The position numbers and the translations under genes are program-made. 13,531 nt of DNA from NCBI GenBank assembly GCA_029555085.1, contig JAKPTO010000022.1:1-13531 (forward strand). The letters are read 5' to 3'. The stretch comes from a bacterium. Its GTDB lineage: Bacteria; Patescibacteriota; Patescibacteriia; UBA1558; S5-K13. Position 1 is the first letter of the stretch; every line of letters begins with the position of its first letter. Shown here in pieces: positions 2,667-13,106 of the stretch. Under the pieces are notes generated by a model that searched no databases, was not told the origin of the DNA, and saw nothing but the letters and a program-made list of their open reading frames with translations.

Positions 2667-4196
2667 TTATTGTTTAATTAAGTAAATTGCATAATTAAGT
2701 TGGGCATCAACATTTGAATTATCTGGATTTTTGACAATTACATCTGGATTGATTCCATTTTTTTCTATAGATCTTTTATTGGGAGTGAGCCAAAAAGCTG
2801 TTGTAATCTTAATTGAAGATCCGTCTTGCATGGTTAAAAGCTCTTGTATGCTACCTTTTCCAAAAGTTTTTTCGCCCACTATGGTCGCTAATTTATAATC
2901 CTGTAACGCTCCTGCTAAAATTTCTGAAGCAGATGCTGAACCTTCATTTACTAAAACTATTGTTTTTTTATTTTTTAACATTGCATCATTATCAGAAGTA
3001 AAAACAATTTCAGATCCTTCTGTTTTGTTTTTTTGTATAACAACAACATCGTGATCTACCCAAAGTCCTGAAATTTTAATAGCCATATCTAAATATCCAC
3101 CGGGATTATTTCTTAAATCTATTATAAATCTGTTAGCTCCTCGATTTGTCAATTCATTTATAGCTTTAACTGTCAAGTCATAACTATCAGAACCAAAACT
3201 TGTAATTTTTATATAACCAACTTCGTCCTTTAATCCATAAGAAACATTATTAATGTGAATTTTGGCTCTCACTATATTTAAAACTACTTCTGTATTATCT
3301 AAATGTCTAATTTTTAAAGAAACACTTGTGCCAGCAGCTCCTCTTATTAGGCTGACAACTTTATCAAGAGTCATACCCGTAGTTGATTGTCCATTAACCT
3401 CCAAAATCATATCTCCTGATTTTATTCCTGCGTTTTTTGCTGGGCTATCATCAATTGGCGCAACAACTGTTATATAACCATTTTTCAAATCAAGTTGAGC
3501 ACCAATTCCTTCTAAATCGCCAGTAAGCTGAGTCATAAATATATCTGAATCATTTTTTGTCATATAAATAGAATAATCATCTTCTAAAGAAGAAACCATT
3601 CCAGATATTGCTCCTTCAAGCATTTTATTATAATCAATATTCCCAGCATATTTTGATTTTATAAAACCCCATATATCATAAAACTTTTGAAAATTAACAT
3701 CCGTTGGTTCATTTAATTGTTTCACGGTTATGTTTAATGCCTGATTTATAATTTTATTACCACTTTCATCAAATTTTACCAAATCCATTGTATTAAAATC
3801 TGACTGAGTAATTGTTTGTGAAATTTTACTCAAATCAATTTCTAAAGTTCTGGTTTTTATTTCATGCGCTATACCGTTAAAATCTATATAAAACAACTTT
3901 CCTTTTCCAGTTACTTCTAATAATAATTTTCCCTTATATTTATTTAATAAAGTTTTATTATTTAATATTTTTGAAATTTCCGTATCTTTTAAACCAATCG
4001 TGATTGTTTTAAATAATTTTGCAAAATTATTTTTTGTAACTTCGTAAATTGCACTATTCTTTGGATTTACATAATAAAATTTATTATTATCATTTTCTAA
4101 TAAAAATTTTCCATCATAAATACTTGAAGCAAAGGTTAAATAAAATGGAAAAATTAAAATTGATAAAAATAATCCGATTTTTAAATATTTTTTCAT
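2667..4196 (-). CDS. ctpA: S41 family carboxy-terminal processing protease (PDZ + S41) with signal peptide and N-terminal repeat extension
   Basis: GIGA and DSPAKNAGIKSGD (PDZ), DLRNNPGG, catalytic SASASEI and TFGKGSIQ motifs, and a hydrophobic N-terminal signal. Confidence 0.93.
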   Translation of the reverse strand: MKKYLKIGLFLSILIFPFYLTFASSIYDGKFLLENDNNKFYYVNPKNSAIYEVTKNNFAKLFKTITIGLKDTEISKILNNKTLLNKYKGKLLLEVTGKGKLFYIDFNGIAHEIKTRTLEIDLSKISQTITQSDFNTMDLVKFDESGNKIINQALNITVKQLNEPTDVNFQKFYDIWGFIKSKYAGNIDYNKMLEGAISGMVSSLEDDYSIYMTKNDSDIFMTQLTGDLEGIGAQLDLKNGYITVVAPIDDSPAKNAGIKSGDMILEVNGQSTTGMTLDKVVSLIRGAAGTSVSLKIRHLDNTEVVLNIVRAKIHINNVSYGLKDEVGYIKITSFGSDSYDLTVKAINELTNRGANRFIIDLRNNPGGYLDMAIKISGLWVDHDVVVIQKNKTEGSEIVFTSDNDAMLKNKKTIVLVNEGSASASEILAGALQDYKLATIVGEKTFGKGSIQELLTMQDGSSIKITTAFWLTPNKRSIEKNGINPDVIVKNPDNSNVDAQLNYAIYLIKQ

Positions 4197-4800: not shown

Positions 4801-5511
4801 ATGGAAAAGACCGATGTCGAAAAAAGGTTATCAGAAATATATGGCATCCTAATCAATAACGAATTGAGGGAATATTCAAATTATTTGAGACAAAAGGAAT
4901 CTCAACTGATTGAATATGTTAGGGATAAAAAAATTCATCCTAAAAATATTCTGCCAGTAATTCCAGTTACAGATACAATTGACAAACAACTGGAATTAGC
5001 AGAGTCAAATTTCCCTCAATTTTCTCTAGATGCAGATTTGTGCAAAAAACCAAATAAGGATTGTCCGAAATTCAAAAGACCATCAATCGCCCAATGTGAA
5101 TATTTAGAATATTTCAAAGACATTCCAAAAACACCACAACAAGCATATTTTGCAGTAGAAAAAAATGTTTTTTGTAGTCCAGCCACGCCTGCTTATTTAA
5201 GAGAAAAGGCTCGTAGCTCACAAAACAATGGTGAAGATGGATTAATGACAATGTTTGAAGTATTTGCTTTTATGGCTTTTGGGTCTTTTAATGATGTCTT
5301 TAAGAGTCAAAACTTTGAATCTCTTTATATCTTAAATTCATATTTGGCCGAAAATGATAATCATAGAATAATTTTGGAAATCATCAATAGAAATGGCTTT
5401 CCAGCGATAATTCTCCATGAAGAAGAAATAAACAGAAAACACCATTATGGTTATACACGCGATGGAATTGGGACAGTCAATATGGTGTCCACAGTTGAAA
5501 TAAGAATTTAA
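4801..5511 (+). CDS. hypothetical protein, possibly a distant DUF5701-like protein
   Basis: 236-aa ORF with AGGAGG RBS and a terminator. The pattern LPVIP...DIPKTP..AY...SP...LMTMFEVFA recalls DUF5701 proteins from memory; the family call is weak. Confidence 0.7.
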   Translation: MEKTDVEKRLSEIYGILINNELREYSNYLRQKESQLIEYVRDKKIHPKNILPVIPVTDTIDKQLELAESNFPQFSLDADLCKKPNKDCPKFKRPSIAQCEYLEYFKDIPKTPQQAYFAVEKNVFCSPATPAYLREKARSSQNNGEDGLMTMFEVFAFMAFGSFNDVFKSQNFESLYILNSYLAENDNHRIILEIINRNGFPAIILHEEEINRKHHYGYTRDGIGTVNMVSTVEIRI

Positions 5512-5542: not shown

Positions 5543-5563
5543 GTATCAATATATCAAAAATAA

Positions 5564-6004
5564 TTATTTAATATAAAATTTTCCTAATTTATAATTTTCT
5601 AAAACCTTTGCACTTGGAAAATACATTGGACTTGGCAGATTATCAATATCAAACCAATTCCACTCTGTAATTTCATCTGGTTCCATTACCTTTGCTTCAC
5701 CTTCAAAATCCTCAGATATTAACCCAATTGTAACAAAATGCGCTGTCTCAACAATATCATTATTTACACATATTACTTCAACATTATTTAACTTAATTCC
5801 AGTTTCTTCCATTGTTTCTCTTTTTCCGCCATCTTCAAATGATTCAGCAAAATGTAACTTTCCACCCGGCATAGTCCAGCACCCTGCTCCATTTAATAAG
5901 CTAGACGCTTTTTCTGGATCTTCGTGTCTTTTTCCAAGTAAAACTTTTCCATCTTTAAGTAACATTACTCCAAAACCAACACCAACTTTTTTGTTTTCTT
6001 CCAT
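5564..6004 (-). CDS. Nudix hydrolase (NUDT15/MutT-like)
   Basis: Nudix box GGKLHFAESFEDGGKRETMEETG; VGVGFGV, HFVTIG and MEPDEITEWNWF are typical of the NUDT15-like group. Confidence 0.92.
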   Translation of the reverse strand: MEENKKVGVGFGVMLLKDGKVLLGKRHEDPEKASSLLNGAGCWTMPGGKLHFAESFEDGGKRETMEETGIKLNNVEVICVNNDIVETAHFVTIGLISEDFEGEAKVMEPDEITEWNWFDIDNLPSPMYFPSAKVLENYKLGKFYIK

Positions 6005-6105
6005 ATATTTATTTTTCGAGTAAGACTCGATTTTAATTATTATTTATGATTATCTATAATTGAAAAATGCAAACTTTTTTAACATTACAATCATAACAAA
6101 ATTAC

Positions 6106-6143
6106 AAAAAAAGAAAAGAGTGGTAGCATTTTAGCTACCACTC
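6106..6143 (-). terminator. intrinsic terminator ending the radical SAM operon
   Basis: GAGTGGTAGC (6118-6127) pairs perfectly with GCTACCACTC (6134-6143); a long T-tract follows on the minus strand. Confidence 0.88.
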
Positions 6144-6157
6144 AAGTAAGATCATAA

Positions 6158-7153
6158 CTATTTGTCTTTTGTGTTTTTCATATATATATGGGCAAGTTGA
6201 CCACAGCAAAGCCCAGCTTCTTCACACTTGGCAATCGTGTCGACGACGACATTGAGACCTAAATTGCGAATTTCATCTCCCTTTTGTTTTAACAAGTCGA
6301 AATTACGATAATTCGCAAATGTCTTTAGGCCATCTCTGTGGCCACGCGTCGTTTTATTGAGGGGAATTAACTTGACCACAAATTTCTCTGGATCTAGTCC
6401 TTTGAGTTTGTCAGGTTTGAGCTCCCAACCCTCTCCACAAATAAAATTGAGAGTTATTGTTCTATTCGTGATGGTCTGTTTATCAAAGAATTCGATAAGA
6501 CGATCTAAAGAAACGACTTTCGCTCCGTGAAAAAGCCAACGTCGTTCATCTTCATTTGTCGAATTGATTGACAATTGAAAATGGAGAAACCCGTCGAATA
6601 TCTCCTCTTTGACACGCAAAACTTCTTTTAAAATCTCAAAGGGACCGACTCCGTCAATTATCGTATCGGGCACGATTGAATTATAACACGGCAAAAAACG
6701 GAAATCACCCCAACGATGATTCTTGAGGTAGTGAATCGCCTTAAGCACATTACTCCAATTGAGAGCCGGTTCACCCATACGAGCGAATCCAATTTTTGCT
6801 TTTTGTGTTTTTCGAACATGTGGCGATTCTCGGATAATCAAATCAATCTGTTCTATGATCTGCTCCGCGCTCAAGTTACCACGAAACGGTAAAAGTGGCA
6901 CATCGCAAAAACGGCATTGATAGCCACAACCGAATTGCGTCGAAACAGTCATTAACCATTTTTGTTCGTGAGGGACAAGATTTGCTCGAATCAAATCCAC
7001 ATCATCAGTGACAAGAACCTGAGGATTCTCCTTTCCGGTAACATCCTGCATCTCCGTGCATTCCACGATATATGGATCACCCTTCGAATCAATCGTCTCG
7101 CAAATAAAAATTCTGCCACTCGGCAGTTCAACTATATCTTTCAGGGTTATCAT
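6158..7153 (-). CDS. RlmN/Cfr-like radical SAM enzyme (divergent, 331 aa)
   Basis: VSTQFGCGYQCRFC (CxxxCxxC), GNLSAEQIIEQI, ARMGEP (cf. MGMGEP), QLSINS, KLIPLN and C-terminal CCGQL (cf. AACGQL). Start placed at ATG 7153 behind an AAGGAG RBS. Confidence 0.85.
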   Translation of the reverse strand: MITLKDIVELPSGRIFICETIDSKGDPYIVECTEMQDVTGKENPQVLVTDDVDLIRANLVPHEQKWLMTVSTQFGCGYQCRFCDVPLLPFRGNLSAEQIIEQIDLIIRESPHVRKTQKAKIGFARMGEPALNWSNVLKAIHYLKNHRWGDFRFLPCYNSIVPDTIIDGVGPFEILKEVLRVKEEIFDGFLHFQLSINSTNEDERRWLFHGAKVVSLDRLIEFFDKQTITNRTITLNFICGEGWELKPDKLKGLDPEKFVVKLIPLNKTTRGHRDGLKTFANYRNFDLLKQKGDEIRNLGLNVVVDTIAKCEEAGLCCGQLAHIYMKNTKDK

Positions 7154-7877
7154 TGTTTCTTCTCCTTTCTTTTCTTTGAAATTCACGAGCCAAAGTTGTG
7201 GCTTCGTAGTCATCATAAACAAGATTATCTGGCATGAAGTAGTAATTGTACTCCCCATCTTCCAAAAAACAAACATTTGGAAATTCACTTGATAGCGTCT
7301 TCCGTATGTTATCGAAATCATTAACAACACCACGACATTCCCGTACTGTCAGTTTAGGAACGAACGAATAAAACTTAATCCATTGCCGAACCCAATCCAC
7401 GCCTTGACCCACATAGACCACTACTGCTCTTAAGTGAGAAAATTTCAGAAGTCTTTCCAGTTCTTCTTTACGAACTTCTGAAATAGTATGCGTGGACACC
7501 ACCACCTGATGAAAACCAAGCGACTCAATCACTGCCAATTTATCAAGCAAATCTTCGTTTGTGTGAAGATCAACCTGACGACCGTGATTGTTGCAAATAG
7601 CAATAATTTTTTTAAGCGTTGGGAGATTTTCCTCTAAATTAAACAATGGGTCACCACCACCGGAAACTGAAACTTTCAGCCCAGTAAATTGCCCAATACA
7701 CCAATTCAAATAATCCCAGTCAATCGCTTGTCTCTTTTGCTTCAACCTATGGTTGGCAAAAGCACAAAAAAAACATTGCCTTGCGCAACCAAAATTGGTG
7801 ACAATGGAAAAATTCCTGCTTTGACAACACAAAGTATTATCAGGCTCAGATTTCTCCTTTCGCACCTGTATCGTCAT
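7128..7877 (-). CDS. short radical SAM superfamily protein (249 aa, no SPASM domain)
   Basis: SIVTNFGCARQCFFC (CxxxCxxC), SVSGGGDPL (GGEP variant) and LHTN. AAGGAGG RBS; overlaps the downstream gene by 26 nt. Confidence 0.88.
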   Translation of the reverse strand: MTIQVRKEKSEPDNTLCCQSRNFSIVTNFGCARQCFFCAFANHRLKQKRQAIDWDYLNWCIGQFTGLKVSVSGGGDPLFNLEENLPTLKKIIAICNNHGRQVDLHTNEDLLDKLAVIESLGFHQVVVSTHTISEVRKEELERLLKFSHLRAVVVYVGQGVDWVRQWIKFYSFVPKLTVRECRGVVNDFDNIRKTLSSEFPNVCFLEDGEYNYYFMPDNLVYDDYEATTLAREFQRKERRRNNDNPERYS

Positions 7878-7914
7878 GATTATTCCTCCTTATTATTTGA
7901 TTTGTAAATTTTTA

Positions 7915-7975
7915 AATATACAAAAATATTAACAAATTTTCAAATCATTATACAAAAAAATGAATAAAAAGTCAA
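7915..7975 (-). promoter_or_regulatory. tandem sigma70 promoters for the radical SAM operon
   Basis: TTGACT (7975-7970), 17 nt, TATAAT (7952-7947); and TTGAAA (7943-7938), 17 nt, TATATT (7920-7915). Confidence 0.7.
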
Positions 7976-8508
7976 TGGTGCCCAATGATTTTTCTCAAAT
8001 ACTGAAAACAAGAATGAATTTTAGGGTCAGTTATTTTTTGCCAAGCAGATATATTCCCCCTTAGAAGATATTCACGCAATTGAGTGGCACTAATGTCATC
8101 TCGATCAACTTTTTCAAACCCAATCTTGTAATTTATATAAATCCACTCCAACTTCGTTTCACTCCCACCATAAACAACATCGGGGATTTTTCCTGTATAA
8201 AATTGACAGAAGGAAATTATCCAATTACCCCATTCGCTATATTCCCTTTCGGTTTTTGGGGTATTATGCGGGTCTGGAAAAAATCCAATTTTCAACCTTT
8301 TATTATCACCGTAAATTTGTTTTATCAAATAAATTCTATCTAAAATATTAAAAGGATTTCTTTTGCTACCATATGACTGGCATTCACCAACAAGTAAAAT
8401 TGCTTCCCTGCATTCCGAAAGCATTTTATCAACGATTTTCTGGTGACCAACATGAACATGTTGGAATCTACCATGAAACAATCCAAATTTATATTTGTAT
8501 TTAGCCAT
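7972..8508 (-). CDS. HxGH nucleotidyltransferase, NMN adenylyltransferase (NadM/NadR-like) / cytidylyltransferase-like
   Basis: GRFQHVHVGH, RNPF..DR and ISATQLR motifs; AAGGAG RBS. Confidence 0.88.
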   Translation of the reverse strand: MAKYKYKFGLFHGRFQHVHVGHQKIVDKMLSECREAILLVGECQSYGSKRNPFNILDRIYLIKQIYGDNKRLKIGFFPDPHNTPKTEREYSEWGNWIISFCQFYTGKIPDVVYGGSETKLEWIYINYKIGFEKVDRDDISATQLREYLLRGNISAWQKITDPKIHSCFQYLRKIIGHH

Positions 8509-8532
8509 AAACCCAACTCCTTTCTTCCTATT

Positions 8533-8608
8533 TGGTGGGCATGAGAGGATTCGAACCTCTGACTTTCACGATGTGAACGTGACACTCTAACCACTGAGTT
8601 ACATGCCC
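8533..8608 (-). tRNA. tRNA-Val(CAC), encoded CCA
   Basis: GGGCATG/CATGCCC acceptor stem, D arm, TCACG-TT CAC AT-CGTGA anticodon arm, GGTTCGAATCC T arm and ACCA end. Confidence 0.97.
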
Positions 8609-8681
8609 AAAACAAACTATTAATTACAAAATTTCAAATATATAATCAATTAAAAAAACACCTAAAAAAACCTTCTTTAAC

Positions 8682-10478
8682 CTATTCTACTGTTACAGAT
8701 TTTGCTAAATTTCTTGGTTTATCAACATTTAATCCTTTTGCATCAGCAACAAAATAACTCATAAGCTGAAGTGGTATTACATTTATAAGTGGTGATAATT
8801 CTTCTTGTGTTTGCGGAACAGAAATTATGAAATTTGATAATTTTTTTATCATTTCATCCTCAGGACAGTCTGTTATTGTTATAATATTTCCTCCTCGAGC
8901 GCGAACTTCTTGCATATTACTAATTACTTTTTCAAAAATTTCTCCACGATTAATAATAAAAACAATAAACATATTTTCATCAATAAGAGCTATTGGTCCG
9001 TGCTTCATTTCAGCAGCTGGATAACCCTCTGCGTGAATATATGAAATCTCTTTTAATTTGAGCGCGCCTTCAAGAGCAACAGGAAAATTAATTCCACGAC
9101 CTAAATATAAAAAATTTTTTGCATCTTTAAAATTTGTAGAAATTTCCTGAATTTTATCCGCTTTATCTAATATACTATTTATTTTCTCTGAAATCAAACT
9201 TAATTCATTTATAAGTTTAGAATCTAATTCTAAACCCAATTCTTGCCTTAAAAAAAGTGAAAATAATATAAGAGCTGTAACTTGGCAGGTAAAAGCTTTT
9301 GTACTCGCAACGCCAATTTCAGGTCCCGCATGAAGATATATTCCAAAATCCACCTCTCTTGCAATACTAGACCCCACAACATTTACAATTCCAAGTGTTT
9401 TACAATTCTTTGCGACCCTTAGCGCAGCTAATGTGTCTGCTGTTTCCCCTGATTGTGAAATTGCAATTAATAAATCATTGTCTTTTATAATTGGATTTCT
9501 GTATCTAAACTCTGAAGCATAATCAACCACTGTTTCGATTCCGGAAATTTTTTCAATTAAATATTTTCCAATGAGAGCTGAGTGCCAACTTGTCCCACAC
9601 GCTGTAATAATTATTTTATTAATTAATTTTGGATCAATATCAAAACTTAATTTAATTTTATTATCTCTAATTCTTCCTCTTAAAGTATTTTCAATTGAGT
9701 GCGGTTGTTCGTAAATTTCTTTTAACATGAAATGTTTAAATCCTGCTTTCTCTATTTCTTTTAAATTCCATTTTATTTCTTGAATTTCGCTATTTACTAA
9801 ATTTCCATTTAAATTTTTTACATCATAACTATTTTTTGTAAGTGTAACTATTTCGTCATCCTTTATATAAATAACTTTTCTTGTATACTCAAGTATTGCG
9901 GAAGCATCACTTGTCACAAACATTTCATCATCCCCTATTCCTATTATAAGTGGCGAGCCACGACGCGCCGCAATAATACATTCTTCACTTTCACAGATTA
10001 CGACTAAGCCAAAAGTTCCCTCAATATATTTTATTGCTTTTATTACAGCTTCCTCTAAATTTCCATTATAAAATTTTTCTATTAAGTGCGCTACGATTTC
10101 AGAATCAGTATCTGAAATAATTTTATGCCCACCTGCTTCTAAAATTTTTTTCAAAGCTCCATAATTTTCTATAATCCCATTGTGGATTATTGCAATTTTA
10201 TTTTTACAATCCAAGTGTGGATGAGCATTTACAACACTAGAATCTCCGTGAGTTGCCCATCTGGTATGAGCTATTCCCATTGTTCCATTTATTCCCCTTC
10301 CTATTAATTCGTTTTCAAGTTCTGTGATTTGCCCTTTTTTCTTTACTGTTTCAAGTTTATTTTGAGATAAAACACAAATACCTGCGCTATCATAACCTCG
10401 GTATTCTAATCTTTTGAGTCCATTTATTAAAATAGGCACAACTTCTTTATTTCCAATATATCCTATTATTCCGCACAT
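8682..10478 (-). CDS. glmS: glutamine--fructose-6-phosphate transaminase (isomerizing)
   Basis: MCGI N-terminal nucleophile, HTRWATHG, SQSGETADT, EGALKLKE and the C-terminal KPRNLAKSVTVE. Confidence 0.98.
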   Translation of the reverse strand: MCGIIGYIGNKEVVPILINGLKRLEYRGYDSAGICVLSQNKLETVKKKGQITELENELIGRGINGTMGIAHTRWATHGDSSVVNAHPHLDCKNKIAIIHNGIIENYGALKKILEAGGHKIISDTDSEIVAHLIEKFYNGNLEEAVIKAIKYIEGTFGLVVICESEECIIAARRGSPLIIGIGDDEMFVTSDASAILEYTRKVIYIKDDEIVTLTKNSYDVKNLNGNLVNSEIQEIKWNLKEIEKAGFKHFMLKEIYEQPHSIENTLRGRIRDNKIKLSFDIDPKLINKIIITACGTSWHSALIGKYLIEKISGIETVVDYASEFRYRNPIIKDNDLLIAISQSGETADTLAALRVAKNCKTLGIVNVVGSSIAREVDFGIYLHAGPEIGVASTKAFTCQVTALILFSLFLRQELGLELDSKLINELSLISEKINSILDKADKIQEISTNFKDAKNFLYLGRGINFPVALEGALKLKEISYIHAEGYPAAEMKHGPIALIDENMFIVFIINRGEIFEKVISNMQEVRARGGNIITITDCPEDEMIKKLSNFIISVPQTQEELSPLINVIPLQLMSYFVADAKGLNVDKPRNLAKSVTVE

Positions 10479-10626
10479 AATATTGAGTAATTAATGTAAA
10501 TAAAAAAATTTATGTTTATCTGTGACACTAGCACTTATCATTTAAACAATATTTAAATTATAAATAAACAAAATTAATATCACAAAATTTAACATATTTT
10601 AATTCAAAATTCAAACTCTTGCGTTA

Positions 10627-11497: not shown

Positions 11498-12544
11498 TTA
11501 CTGTTTGTTTTTTAATTTTTCTAAATTATCCAAAATTTCTAATTTTTGTTTTGCATTTTCAAGATAATCTAAAACTTCAATTGACTTATCAATAAAATCT
11601 TCTTTAGTTATATTATAATTTTTATCTGAAATATATCTAGAAATAATATCAATATATTGAACTACCATTGTTCCCATTTTTTTATTATTTTCCATTACCT
11701 GCTTTACATATTCATCTTTAAATAAAATATCTTTTATAGACGCTTCATTTTTCCCTTCTAATTTTGCAAATATGAGATTCCAAAAATCTTCAAATTTTGA
11801 TTCAATTTTTTGTTTTCTATGCTCGTATTCATTCATCAATGCATTTCTTACAATTTCAAAATCCTTGAATTCTAATTTATCTACAATATTTTCTAAATCT
11901 TTTATATCGCTTTCCCTAGTATTATCCCAAGAATATGCATATATTTTATGATAAAGAATAAGTGCTGGATGGGAAAGATTAACTTCTTTTCCGTTGGGAA
12001 GTTTATGTTTTGTAATTTCCATATATTCTTTTGGAAATACTGTACCAGAATAATTGATAACTAAATTGCCCTCTTTATCTCTATCATGAATATGTAAATC
12101 AACTGCATTAAATTGATCCCTCGTCGTAATAAAATTACCATCTGAGCCAAGTTTTTTAATAAAAAAATGATTTGGGTCATTTTCATCAATACCAAATCCT
12201 TTGTCTTTTAAAAATTCCTTTATTTCATTGTAGTTTTCTTTAAGTATACACATATCTAAATCCTTGTGTTCTCTATCTATGTATTGTTCATTGTCTTTAT
12301 TGTATAATGGGATATTCGCTCCTCCATCTATACACCAAAAAAAAGTAGCGTTTTCAAAAACTTCTGACATGGTTTTTAGTCCATCTTCAAATCTTTGCTT
12401 TTGCTCTGGCGTTGCTATTTGATTTGGAATCTTATTTTTTCTCTCTTCCAAAGTTGGAAAATTTTCATTTTTAGAAACATTTTCTTTTTTCTGTTCTGAG
12501 GTTGGGGAGTTTTCATTTTTTATGTAGTTTTTTTCACCTTCCAT
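11498..12544 (-). CDS. pol-beta-fold nucleotidyltransferase, ANT(2'')/LnuA-like, with a long helical C-terminal extension
   Basis: WCIDGGANI..REHKDLDMCI matches the W.xGGW..R.H.DxD pattern; third Asp in AVDLH; later HK..RESDIKD. Confidence 0.75.
   Translation of the reverse strand: MEGEKNYIKNENSPTSEQKKENVSKNENFPTLEERKNKIPNQIATPEQKQRFEDGLKTMSEVFENATFFWCIDGGANIPLYNKDNEQYIDREHKDLDMCILKENYNEIKEFLKDKGFGIDENDPNHFFIKKLGSDGNFITTRDQFNAVDLHIHDRDKEGNLVINYSGTVFPKEYMEITKHKLPNGKEVNLSHPALILYHKIYAYSWDNTRESDIKDLENIVDKLEFKDFEIVRNALMNEYEHRKQKIESKFEDFWNLIFAKLEGKNEASIKDILFKDEYVKQVMENNKKMGTMVVQYIDIISRYISDKNYNITKEDFIDKSIEVLDYLENAKQKLEILDNLEKLKNKQ
12453..12520. repeat. imperfect 48-nt-period intragenic repeat (KNENSPT / KNENFPT)
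   Basis: gttggaaaattttcattttt (12453-12472) versus gttggggagttttcattttt (12501-12520). Confidence 0.6.
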
Positions 12545-12545
12545 A

Positions 12546-13106
12546 TTATTTTAAATAAAACTTTTTAGCTTTTTTAAATAGTTTATTCATTAATTTAATT
12601 CCTGTCTTTGTTTTAAATCTTGGCATTCTTTTTTTTTCAAAACCATTTATAAATCTTATTCTATCGTCTTTGCTCAGGTTTGATTTTGCTCTTTTTATAT
12701 CAATCTGAGCTAAAGAATCTGCTTCAAAAACTAATTGTTTGTCAGAATCAAAAACACCATCTAAATTATCGTGGGTTCCTACTAAATGCAATATTTTCTT
12801 TGATTCTTCTTCGCTATAGCCCAATTTTTGCAAAATAGGTCTTCCAAAAATTACTCCATTTTTCATATGATCTAATTTTGATTTCTTTACATTATCTCTT
12901 GTACTCAAATCTCCCCTAATCCATGAATAACCTATATCATGTAAATACATTGTTGTTATTAAAATTTTTTCATTACCAGCTTCTTTTTTTAACAATTTTT
13001 TCATATAATACACAGATGTCAAAGTGTGTGGAATATCCCAATCAGGACGACCATTTTGTAAAATATTCAAAACCTCTGTTTCAAGTTGTTTAAAATTATT
13101 TTTCAT
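12546..13106 (-). CDS. HD domain-containing metal-dependent phosphohydrolase
   Basis: H(TL)...YLHDIG...H...THD...EADSL metal-ligand pattern. Confidence 0.9.
   Translation of the reverse strand: MKNNFKQLETEVLNILQNGRPDWDIPHTLTSVYYMKKLLKKEAGNEKILITTMYLHDIGYSWIRGDLSTRDNVKKSKLDHMKNGVIFGRPILQKLGYSEEESKKILHLVGTHDNLDGVFDSDKQLVFEADSLAQIDIKRAKSNLSKDDRIRFINGFEKKRMPRFKTKTGIKLMNKLFKKAKKFYLK

Follow-up and report, generated by a model that had tools for sequence, protein, structure and literature searches.

Organization of the locus

The stretch of DNA under study (the window) comprises 13,531 nucleotides and represents the entire contig C38 (JAKPTO010000022.1) of a bacterial genome of the Patescibacteriota (GCA_029555085.1, here G000; 1.02 Mb, 29% GC, 53 contigs). 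Its central part is occupied by a horizontally acquired cassette that carries a transfer RNA gene, tRNA-Val(cac), followed on the minus strand by three protein-coding genes, termed A, B and C. The features of the cassette are listed below (window coordinates, strand, description).

6016..8675, no strand assigned: insertion relative to the related genome G003, 2660 bp between glmS and nudix
8609..8675, minus: tRNA-Val upstream region, within the insert; probably the tRNA promoter, which may also drive gene A
8533..8608, minus: tRNA-Val(cac), detected with ARAGORN and Rfam; sole cac copy in G000, carried within the insert
7972..8508, minus: gene A, NMNAT/NadM-like nucleotidyltransferase, 178 amino acids (aa); HxGH and SxTxxR-type motifs
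7878..7971, minus: A-B spacer with three overlapping sigma-70-like sites and the AAGGAGG motif of B
7128..7877, minus: gene B, minimal radical S-adenosylmethionine (SAM) enzyme, 249 aa
6158..7153, minus: gene C, RlmN/Cfr-like radical SAM enzyme, 331 aa
6118..6143, minus: intrinsic terminator of the B-C unit, 10-pair stem with 6 G-C pairs, then a T run

A preliminary description of the locus had noted three co-oriented genes starting 25 nt after the tRNA gene; the co-orientation holds, and the distance between the tRNA 3' end and the ATG of gene A is corrected to 24 nt. For gene C, the list of open reading frames (ORFs) extends to a GTG at 7333, and the ATG at 7153 was preferred because it lies 8 nt downstream of an AAGGAG motif and homologues of C are 320-350 aa long. 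With this start codon, the 26-nt overlap of B and C proposed before is correct (7128-7153). The strong Shine-Dalgarno motifs that had been said to set the three genes apart from their core neighbours are indeed present (AAGGAG/AAGGAGG before A, B and C), and the motif is missing in 10 of the 11 other genes in the window, the single exception being orf236. A recount of the G+C content reproduced the earlier values exactly (27 in the line 6841-6900, 11 in the line 3901-3960). The B-C segment has a GC content of 40.6%, compared to a genome mean of 29.0%; among 4702 genomic segments of 1720 nt, it falls within the top 0.53%. At third codon positions, the GC content (GC3) amounts to 0.35 in B and 0.40 in C, as opposed to 0.17 in glmS and 0.18 in nudix. 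Gene A has a lower GC content than B-C.

The perfect 10-bp terminator described at the end of the two radical SAM genes was recovered at 6143-6118. The suggestion that these genes have their own promoters stands in part: three sigma-70-like sites are located in the A-B spacer, the best of them (TTGACT-17-TATAAT) matching at 11 of 12 positions, and promoters in this spacer are thus plausible, but the number of such sites across the region does not exceed chance (5 observed vs. 8.8 ± 3.1 in shuffled sequences). A scan for sigma-70-like sites gave no promoter-like site between tRNA-Val and gene A. A 34-nt stretch upstream of the tRNA gene (8621-8654) resembles part of the A-B spacer (7927-7960) with 71% identity. 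The Rfam scan returned the two tRNAs only and no riboswitch.

Horizontal acquisition of the cassette

The window was compared with related genomes by blastn and tblastn. In G003, a member of the same genus, glmS and nudix lie about 44 bp apart and enclose no cassette (locus L250, contig G003:C4). The window segments 5560-6015 and 8676-10484 match nudix and glmS, respectively, and are contiguous in L250 (9311-9769 and 7457-9266). Because glmS directly adjoins nudix in G003, positions 6016-8675 constitute a 2660-bp insertion, which contains the terminator, genes C, B and A, tRNA-Val and the upstream region of the tRNA gene. Genes A and B were found in none of 40 relatives, and gene B was also missing from all of 400 further genomes sampled across the phylum. 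Gene C gave three weak matches in the 40 relatives (E ~1e-16), which cluster with host-type RlmN. Together with the empty site in G003 and the deviant GC content, GC3 and Shine-Dalgarno usage, this near-absence bears out the proposed horizontal acquisition of the cassette.

The tRNA gene appears to have a history different from the one suggested before, in which the islet had integrated into a resident tRNA gene. The empty glmS-nudix site of G003 is devoid of a tRNA, and G001, G002, G003 and G005 carry the orthologous tRNA-Val(cac) elsewhere, between genes homologous to those at ~59390 and ~59733 of contig C41 in G000. No tRNA is present at this ancestral site in G000, whose only cac copy is that of the window. 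Moreover, window positions 8529-8651 are 85% identical to the tRNA-Val locus of G001. Since the relatives have their copy at another locus and the empty site is free of tRNA, tRNA-Val came with the block. An annotation of ORFs and domains revealed no integrase ORF in the window, and a repeat search of positions 5900-8720 detected no repeat pairing the tRNA end (8533-8560) with the boundary region at 6016-6160. The block was therefore not acquired by classic integration into a resident tRNA gene. The locus instead represents a case in which a tRNA gene moved along with a cassette and was not a fixed site of integration. At the C41 site (~59390-59733), the relatives carry the tRNA in a gap of 157 nt; the corresponding interval in G000 measures 343 nt and seemingly contains a small ORF on the minus strand.

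The site downstream of glmS varies within the genus, and the interval between the S41 peptidase gene and glmS is a variable hotspot. In G001 (L251, G001:C3, 1403-3304), nudix and the cassette are replaced by genes for a 325-aa HD-domain protein and a 296-aa patatin-like phospholipase. In one DNA sequencing run, no read joint across the insert was found, a result that is uninformative on polymorphism since contigs drop rare variants.

Presence in DNA and RNA libraries

Samples of sludge, wastewater, soil and digesters gave 14 DNA runs that contain the whole stretch. Contigs from an RNA library (X15) match the window with zero differences at 6191-7459 (C into B), 7564-7861 (B) and 7980-8181 (A), and contigs from two further RNA libraries (X16 and X17, from two studies) also cover C, the B/C junction and A. 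One RNA-library contig thus spans the B/C overlap (6191-7459), and another ends at 6141, at the terminator. The cassette is expressed in the sense that its sequence is present in RNA libraries, which is a statement on presence and not on transcript structure or level. The lack of RNA contigs over nudix, the tRNA and most of glmS is not evidence of silence.

Distribution of the trio and linkage of B and C

The A-B-C trio recurs, at 76-88% identity and with unrelated flanks, on a contig of a Falkowbacteria metagenome-assembled genome (MAG) and on several metagenome contigs; in L090 and L097, it is located ~740 nt downstream of tRNA-Ser(cga). Homologues of gene C at about 50% identity number more than 400, and a profile search of 1.84 billion representatives (E<=1e-3) yielded 588 clusters of gene B (50% identity). 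The two radical SAM proteins match PHROG families of unknown function (B, phrog_17662, 6.6e-11; C, phrog_24834, 3.4e-34) and occur on many IMG/VR contigs of 90-390 kb, and the Atlas neighbours of B are mostly viral. These matches substantiate the earlier idea of a phage link for B and C. In a quick tree, whose root is unknown, the clade of the bacterial cassette is placed beside an IMG/VR sequence, within the viral/metagenome family and far from the host RlmNs. This distribution suggests that large phages are the natural home of the enzyme system.

Linkage was counted at loci that had been fetched using B or C as bait. Among the sources scanned, 222 contained B-like ORFs, 152 contained C-like ORFs and 139 contained both. 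All 139 pairs are co-oriented; in 97 of them, the two genes are at most 200 nt apart (71 C-then-B, 26 B-then-C), and in the other 42 they lie within 3 kb. Close pairs commonly overlap, in either order. After removal of redundancy, B was found in all of 108 loci and C in 106, followed by the next gene cluster in 17, so that there is no third common gene. Judging from this conserved arrangement, B and C are predicted to be an obligate pair of radical SAM enzymes. A phage-type C-then-B pair was also seen on a contig binned to a Methanosarcinales MAG (L091, 7024-8612), either as a provirus or as a binning artefact. In a close relative of the cassette (L098, 1307-2317), B and C are separated by an additional radical SAM gene, whose 336-aa product has a B12-binding domain. 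Among the listings and abstracts returned by full-text literature searches, there was no published description of the B-C pair or the trio.

Occasional neighbours of the pair at viral loci comprise DNA methyltransferases, Tad4, Sir2, a SLOG protein and further radical SAM enzymes. The presence of DNA methyltransferases of the N6/N4 and Dam types (clusters in 8 and 5 of the 108 loci), together with distant C homologues of isolate phages that lie among replication and recombination genes, could speak for a role in phage DNA modification. The pair would then make a modified deoxynucleotide, or modify replicated DNA, to counter restriction, and the bacterial copy would be a stranded remnant. However, the reading frames of the bacterial cassette are intact, it carries its own signals, contigs from RNA libraries are identical to it, and phage genes are not found near it; the 108 loci show no conserved partner of the deoxynucleotide-metabolism or glycosylase type; and NMNAT-type enzymes act on ribonucleotides. 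We therefore regard DNA modification as an improbable function.

Gene A and its fusion to gene B

The product of gene A contains a PF01467 domain (34 bits vs. a cut-off of 21), the sole match to this family in G000; a member of the PF01467 superfamily was found in 16 of 20 relatives. Like the archaeal NMNAT/NadM N-terminal domain (1f9a; TIGR01527, NF003786), A and the fused domains described below are Rossmann-type nucleotidyltransferases with HxGH and SxTxxR motifs (in A, H19-x-G21-H22 and S140-A-T142-x-x-R145). Sequence searches of the Protein Data Bank (PDB) retrieved archaeal NMNAT 1f9a (9.8e-9), and the best NCBIfam matches are NMNAT models. Unlike the archaeal enzymes, A remains below all equivalog cut-offs (47-53 vs. 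127-397 bits; NF003786, 53.3/397; NF002243, 51.6/127; TIGR01527, 47.4/181), belongs to a tiny family and has a radical SAM enzyme as its neighbour or fusion partner. The family comprises 10 clusters, and separate A-like ORFs are restricted to the closest cassette clade. In a family alignment (A5), the first His of HxGH is replaced by Gln in two of nine members. At two loci (L095, 7150-7916; L096, 5921-6687), A is cut to an 89-aa C-terminal piece after an ORF with an MliC-like domain, with B and C intact.

A connection of A to the radical SAM pair is provided by fusion proteins. Profile searches with B identified three proteins in which a full N-terminal PF01467 domain is fused to B (P0155, encoded on a 205-kb contig, P0174, which represents a cluster of 29, and P0257); the best NCBIfam matches of these domains are again NMNAT/NadM. 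A further candidate, P0134 (58% identical to the B protein of the window), was at first not supported as an A-B fusion (BLASTP; hhalign probability 1.2%) and was revived by the other fusions and by the full-length fusion P0308, whose B half belongs to the P0134 cluster and whose N-terminus is 40% identical to A over 48 aa. In L124 and in the 115-kb IMG/VR contig L222, a fusion ORF follows C immediately downstream. NMNAT-like::B fusions are thus found in at least four separate 50%-identity clusters and at two loci with adjacent C. Since A-type and B-type proteins are fused in several distant lineages, A is tied to B and C as one system, also in phages, as had been surmised from the gene arrangement when the three genes were first described as a single functional unit. 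No other evidence for a single three-gene system is as strong as these fusions, and as the two activities reside in a single polypeptide in several lineages, A is expected to work directly with B.

The fusions also bear on the explanation that the genes share no function, with A being the NAD-salvage NMNAT of the cell that travels by chance with an unrelated phage gene pair. Such a coincidence could be suspected because A is the only PF01467 protein of G000 and GC-poorer than B-C, with a nudix hydrolase encoded just beyond the cassette. As a test of this explanation, the motifs of the fused domains were inspected (alignment A6), and both HxGH and SGTxxR were found to be kept. In addition, A accompanies B-C in different genomic contexts, and the nudix gene belongs to the ancestral locus rather than to the insert. 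Coupled with the spread of the fusions over separate clusters, these observations make a chance association very unlikely.

Gene B, a minimal radical SAM enzyme

Gene B encodes a protein with a PF04055 domain (33 bits). Its cluster motif is CxxxCxxC and its SAM motif GGGDP; the sequence GDYNxYxMPDN is conserved in the C-terminal part, and auxiliary-cluster cysteines are missing. In an alignment of 66 sequences (A3), the residues H105, R150, Y210 and Y213 are invariant in addition to the cluster and SAM motifs. The premise that this genome carries little iron-sulphur chemistry proved weak, since 10 of the 12 above-threshold PF04055 matches in G000 lie outside the islet. A PDB sequence search with B also returned TAL-effector rows, which had no passing stretch and were judged to be repeat or composition artefacts.

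The predicted model of B (predicted local distance difference test score, pLDDT, 89) has viperin as its nearest structural neighbour (5vsl; Z 17.6, root-mean-square deviation 3.0, 205 residues aligned), followed by SuiB (Z 16.1), MoaA (Z 15.2) and, together with MoaA at roughly 14-15, PqqE and others. The closeness of the predicted fold to viperin may be taken as a lead towards a nucleotide substrate, not as proof. B shares with the prokaryotic viperins (pVips) a link to an enzyme that handles nucleotides, and like viperin it belongs to the small radical SAM enzymes. It differs from pVips in that pVip hidden Markov models (HMMs) do not match B, its partner is an NMNAT-type transferase instead of a nucleotide kinase, an RlmN-like second radical SAM enzyme is obligatory, and its carriers are mostly phages rather than defence islands.

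The structural similarity of B to viperin is an argument for a role in anti-phage defence, in which A would supply a substrate, B would convert it into a viperin-like antiviral nucleotide, and C would modify the product. The variable site downstream of glmS, which in G001 holds the HD and patatin genes, would fit with this function, as HD and patatin domains are common in defence islands. However, searches with PADLOC gave no match for A or B and a single sub-threshold pVip match for C (PDLC02903, E 0.0091) with no passing stretch; the family occurs mainly on viral contigs, and the match of B to viperin is just 1.5 Z above that to SuiB. The defence role considered in the preliminary description is thus unsupported and, in our view, has little probability.

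Gene C, an RlmN/Cfr-like enzyme with an altered cysteine pattern

The model for radical SAM methylation via a methyl-cysteine and a resolving cysteine is provided by RlmN and Cfr. Gene C shares with them (PDB 3rfa, 5hr7, 6fz6, 9p0p) the radical SAM cluster motif, the methyl-carrying Cys in a CGQL context and the fold, as judged from a predicted model (pLDDT 90.9) with Foldseek values of 3e-14 to 1e-7 (RlmN, 3e-14; Cfr, 1.2e-7; next family, 4e-6). The alignment with RlmN and Cfr chains extends over the cluster motif and the C-terminal CGQL motif. C nevertheless stays far below the family cut-offs (RlmN TIGR00048, 54 vs. 290 bits; Cfr models, 35-37 vs. 468-550 bits) and, unlike RlmN and Cfr, is paired with a second radical SAM enzyme in a host that keeps its own, ordinary RlmN (encoded on contig C5 of G000).

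The cysteines were surveyed in 121 ORFs of the C family and four host RlmNs. The cluster cysteines C76, C80 and C83 are conserved in 121/121 family ORFs, and so is the methyl-carrying position C317 (C355 of RlmN), which is also a Cys in all four host RlmNs. At the position of the resolving Cys (C118 of RlmN), seven residues before the cluster motif, none of the 121 family members has a Cys (T in 82, A in 38, N in 1), in contrast to all four host RlmNs; in gene C, it is T69 that aligns with the resolving Cys of wild-type RlmN (3rf9) and Cfr (9p0p). Two extra cysteines, C316, which adjoins the methyl carrier C317, and C156, are each present in 120 of 121 family ORFs and missing from the host RlmNs. 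Based on these patterns, C is a predicted class-A (RlmN/Cfr-type) methyl synthase that has kept the methyl-carrying Cys and lost the product-releasing one. In RlmN itself, the C118A variant traps covalent adducts with the substrate. The RlmN HMM starts to match C at model position 71 of 355, and residues 1-35 of C form three beta strands in the predicted model; C hence apparently does not contain the N-terminal domain that RlmN uses for RNA.

A C homologue of 684 aa, encoded on an IMG/VR contig of 393,839 nt (L010, 8626-10680), contains a LAGLIDADG intein inserted after the radical SAM motif. Inteins tend to occupy important genes. Given the frequency of the family in large phages and the intein in the C gene of this 394-kb phage, the product of the system is probably important in infection.

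The properties of C lead to the main rival explanation, that the cassette modifies RNA. C would methylate an adenine of a tRNA or rRNA, B would resolve the covalent enzyme-RNA intermediate or modify the same base, and A would be only loosely connected. The closest relatives of C in both sequence and structure are RlmN and Cfr, the carriers are large phages, and the cassette lies near tRNA genes in two lineages (tRNA-Val in the window and, ~740 nt upstream, tRNA-Ser(cga) in L090 and L097). On the other hand, the N-terminal RNA domain of RlmN appears to be missing, the NMNAT-like::B fusions point to a step involving a small-molecule nucleotide, and a canonical RlmN is already encoded in G000. 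RNA modification is accordingly a possibility that we hold to be doubtful but serious, with DNA modification, host defence and coincidence being less likely.

A proposed nucleotide-modifying system

The explanation we favour, with about an even chance of being correct, is that the bacterium has captured, along with a tRNA gene, a three-part system of phage origin for the modification of nucleotides, which acts on an adenine-containing small nucleotide. As we infer the order of steps, A would join a nucleoside monophosphate, derived from ATP or another nucleoside triphosphate, to a phosphorylated partner, giving a dinucleotide or a compound of the nucleoside diphosphate type; where A is absent, an abundant cellular nucleotide would be used in its place. 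B would then abstract a hydrogen from this nucleotide by radical chemistry, and C would transfer a one-carbon unit onto the adenine ring, at an sp2 carbon, with a product-release step different from that of RlmN, to yield a modified adenine nucleotide. In phages, this nucleotide might serve in the conflict between phage and host or in phage nucleotide metabolism.

A narrower version of this proposal takes into account the genes found near the pair. Genes for Tad4, Sir2 and YpsA/SLOG proteins are located within 4 kb of B-C in 5-6 of the 108 loci (e.g. L194, 8869-9300; L197, 6059-6796; L190, 8960-9469), which hints at a neighbourhood concerned with conflict over nicotinamide adenine dinucleotide (NAD) and ADP-ribose (ADPR). 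Tad4 is an inhibitor of Thoeris. Because Tad4, Sir2 and SLOG are among the phage neighbours, the trio may constitute an undescribed phage pathway to a C-methylated or methylene-bridged adenine dinucleotide (NAD/ADP-ribose-like) that subverts NAD+/ADPR-based immunity, with the vicinal Cys316, or B, replacing the resolving Cys. We consider this version speculative and rather unlikely.

Several points weigh against the favoured proposal of a system acting on small adenine nucleotides. RlmN and Cfr act on RNA, not on free nucleotides, so that the target may be a macromolecule. The structural matches of the predicted B model are those of the generic radical SAM core. Most B-C loci are without an NMNAT-like ORF within 5-8 kb: the NMNAT-like profile matched 12 ORFs in B-C loci, three of which represent the window itself (WIN and its duplicates L004 and L009). 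Scans of IMG/VR for A-type proteins, using alignment A5 and a fusion alignment (A7), found nothing; these pattern scans miss real cases, since the IMG/VR contig L222 holds a fusion. The small number of NMNAT-like ORFs near B-C and the empty scans suggest that A is an accessory rather than a core part of the system. As the sole PF01467 protein of G000, A could moreover double as the NAD-salvage enzyme of the cell. The presumed transfer from phage to cell rests on the distribution, the root of the tree being unreliable. Finally, contigs from RNA libraries may include DNA, and their depth does not permit a ranking of the genes.

Among the defence systems described, Ophion of Gammaproteobacteria combines a radical SAM enzyme with PHP and phosphoribosyltransferase (PRTase) proteins and is proposed to act on nucleic acids (10.1101/2025.09.30.679545). 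The cassette resembles Ophion in comprising three genes for radical SAM and nucleotide-handling enzymes, and it differs in having two radical SAM enzymes instead of one and no PHP or phosphoribosyltransferase partners; the likeness is one of description, with no homology claimed.

The existence of a large natural family in which the resolving Cys is lacking and a second radical SAM enzyme is a constant companion implies that RlmN/Cfr chemistry can be completed or redirected in a way not yet known. The fusion to an NMNAT-type domain points to a nucleotide substrate and offers a concrete starting point for work in vitro, for which the bacterial copy provides a compact, intact and minimal three-gene version suitable for expression.

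Neighbouring genes

The genes surrounding the cassette in the window encode GlmS, Nudix, SDR, HD and S41 peptidase proteins, among others. The gene orf236 (4801-5511, plus strand) has a strong TAGGAGG Shine-Dalgarno motif, unlike the core genes, and gave no Pfam match. It is missing from the corresponding S41-nudix interval in G003 and G001 and looks like a second, separate insertion adjoining the cassette. Elsewhere in the window (11498-13106, minus strand), a 348-aa protein with a weak aminoglycoside-2''-adenylyltransferase-like match is encoded next to an HD-domain protein, and both are kept in G003.

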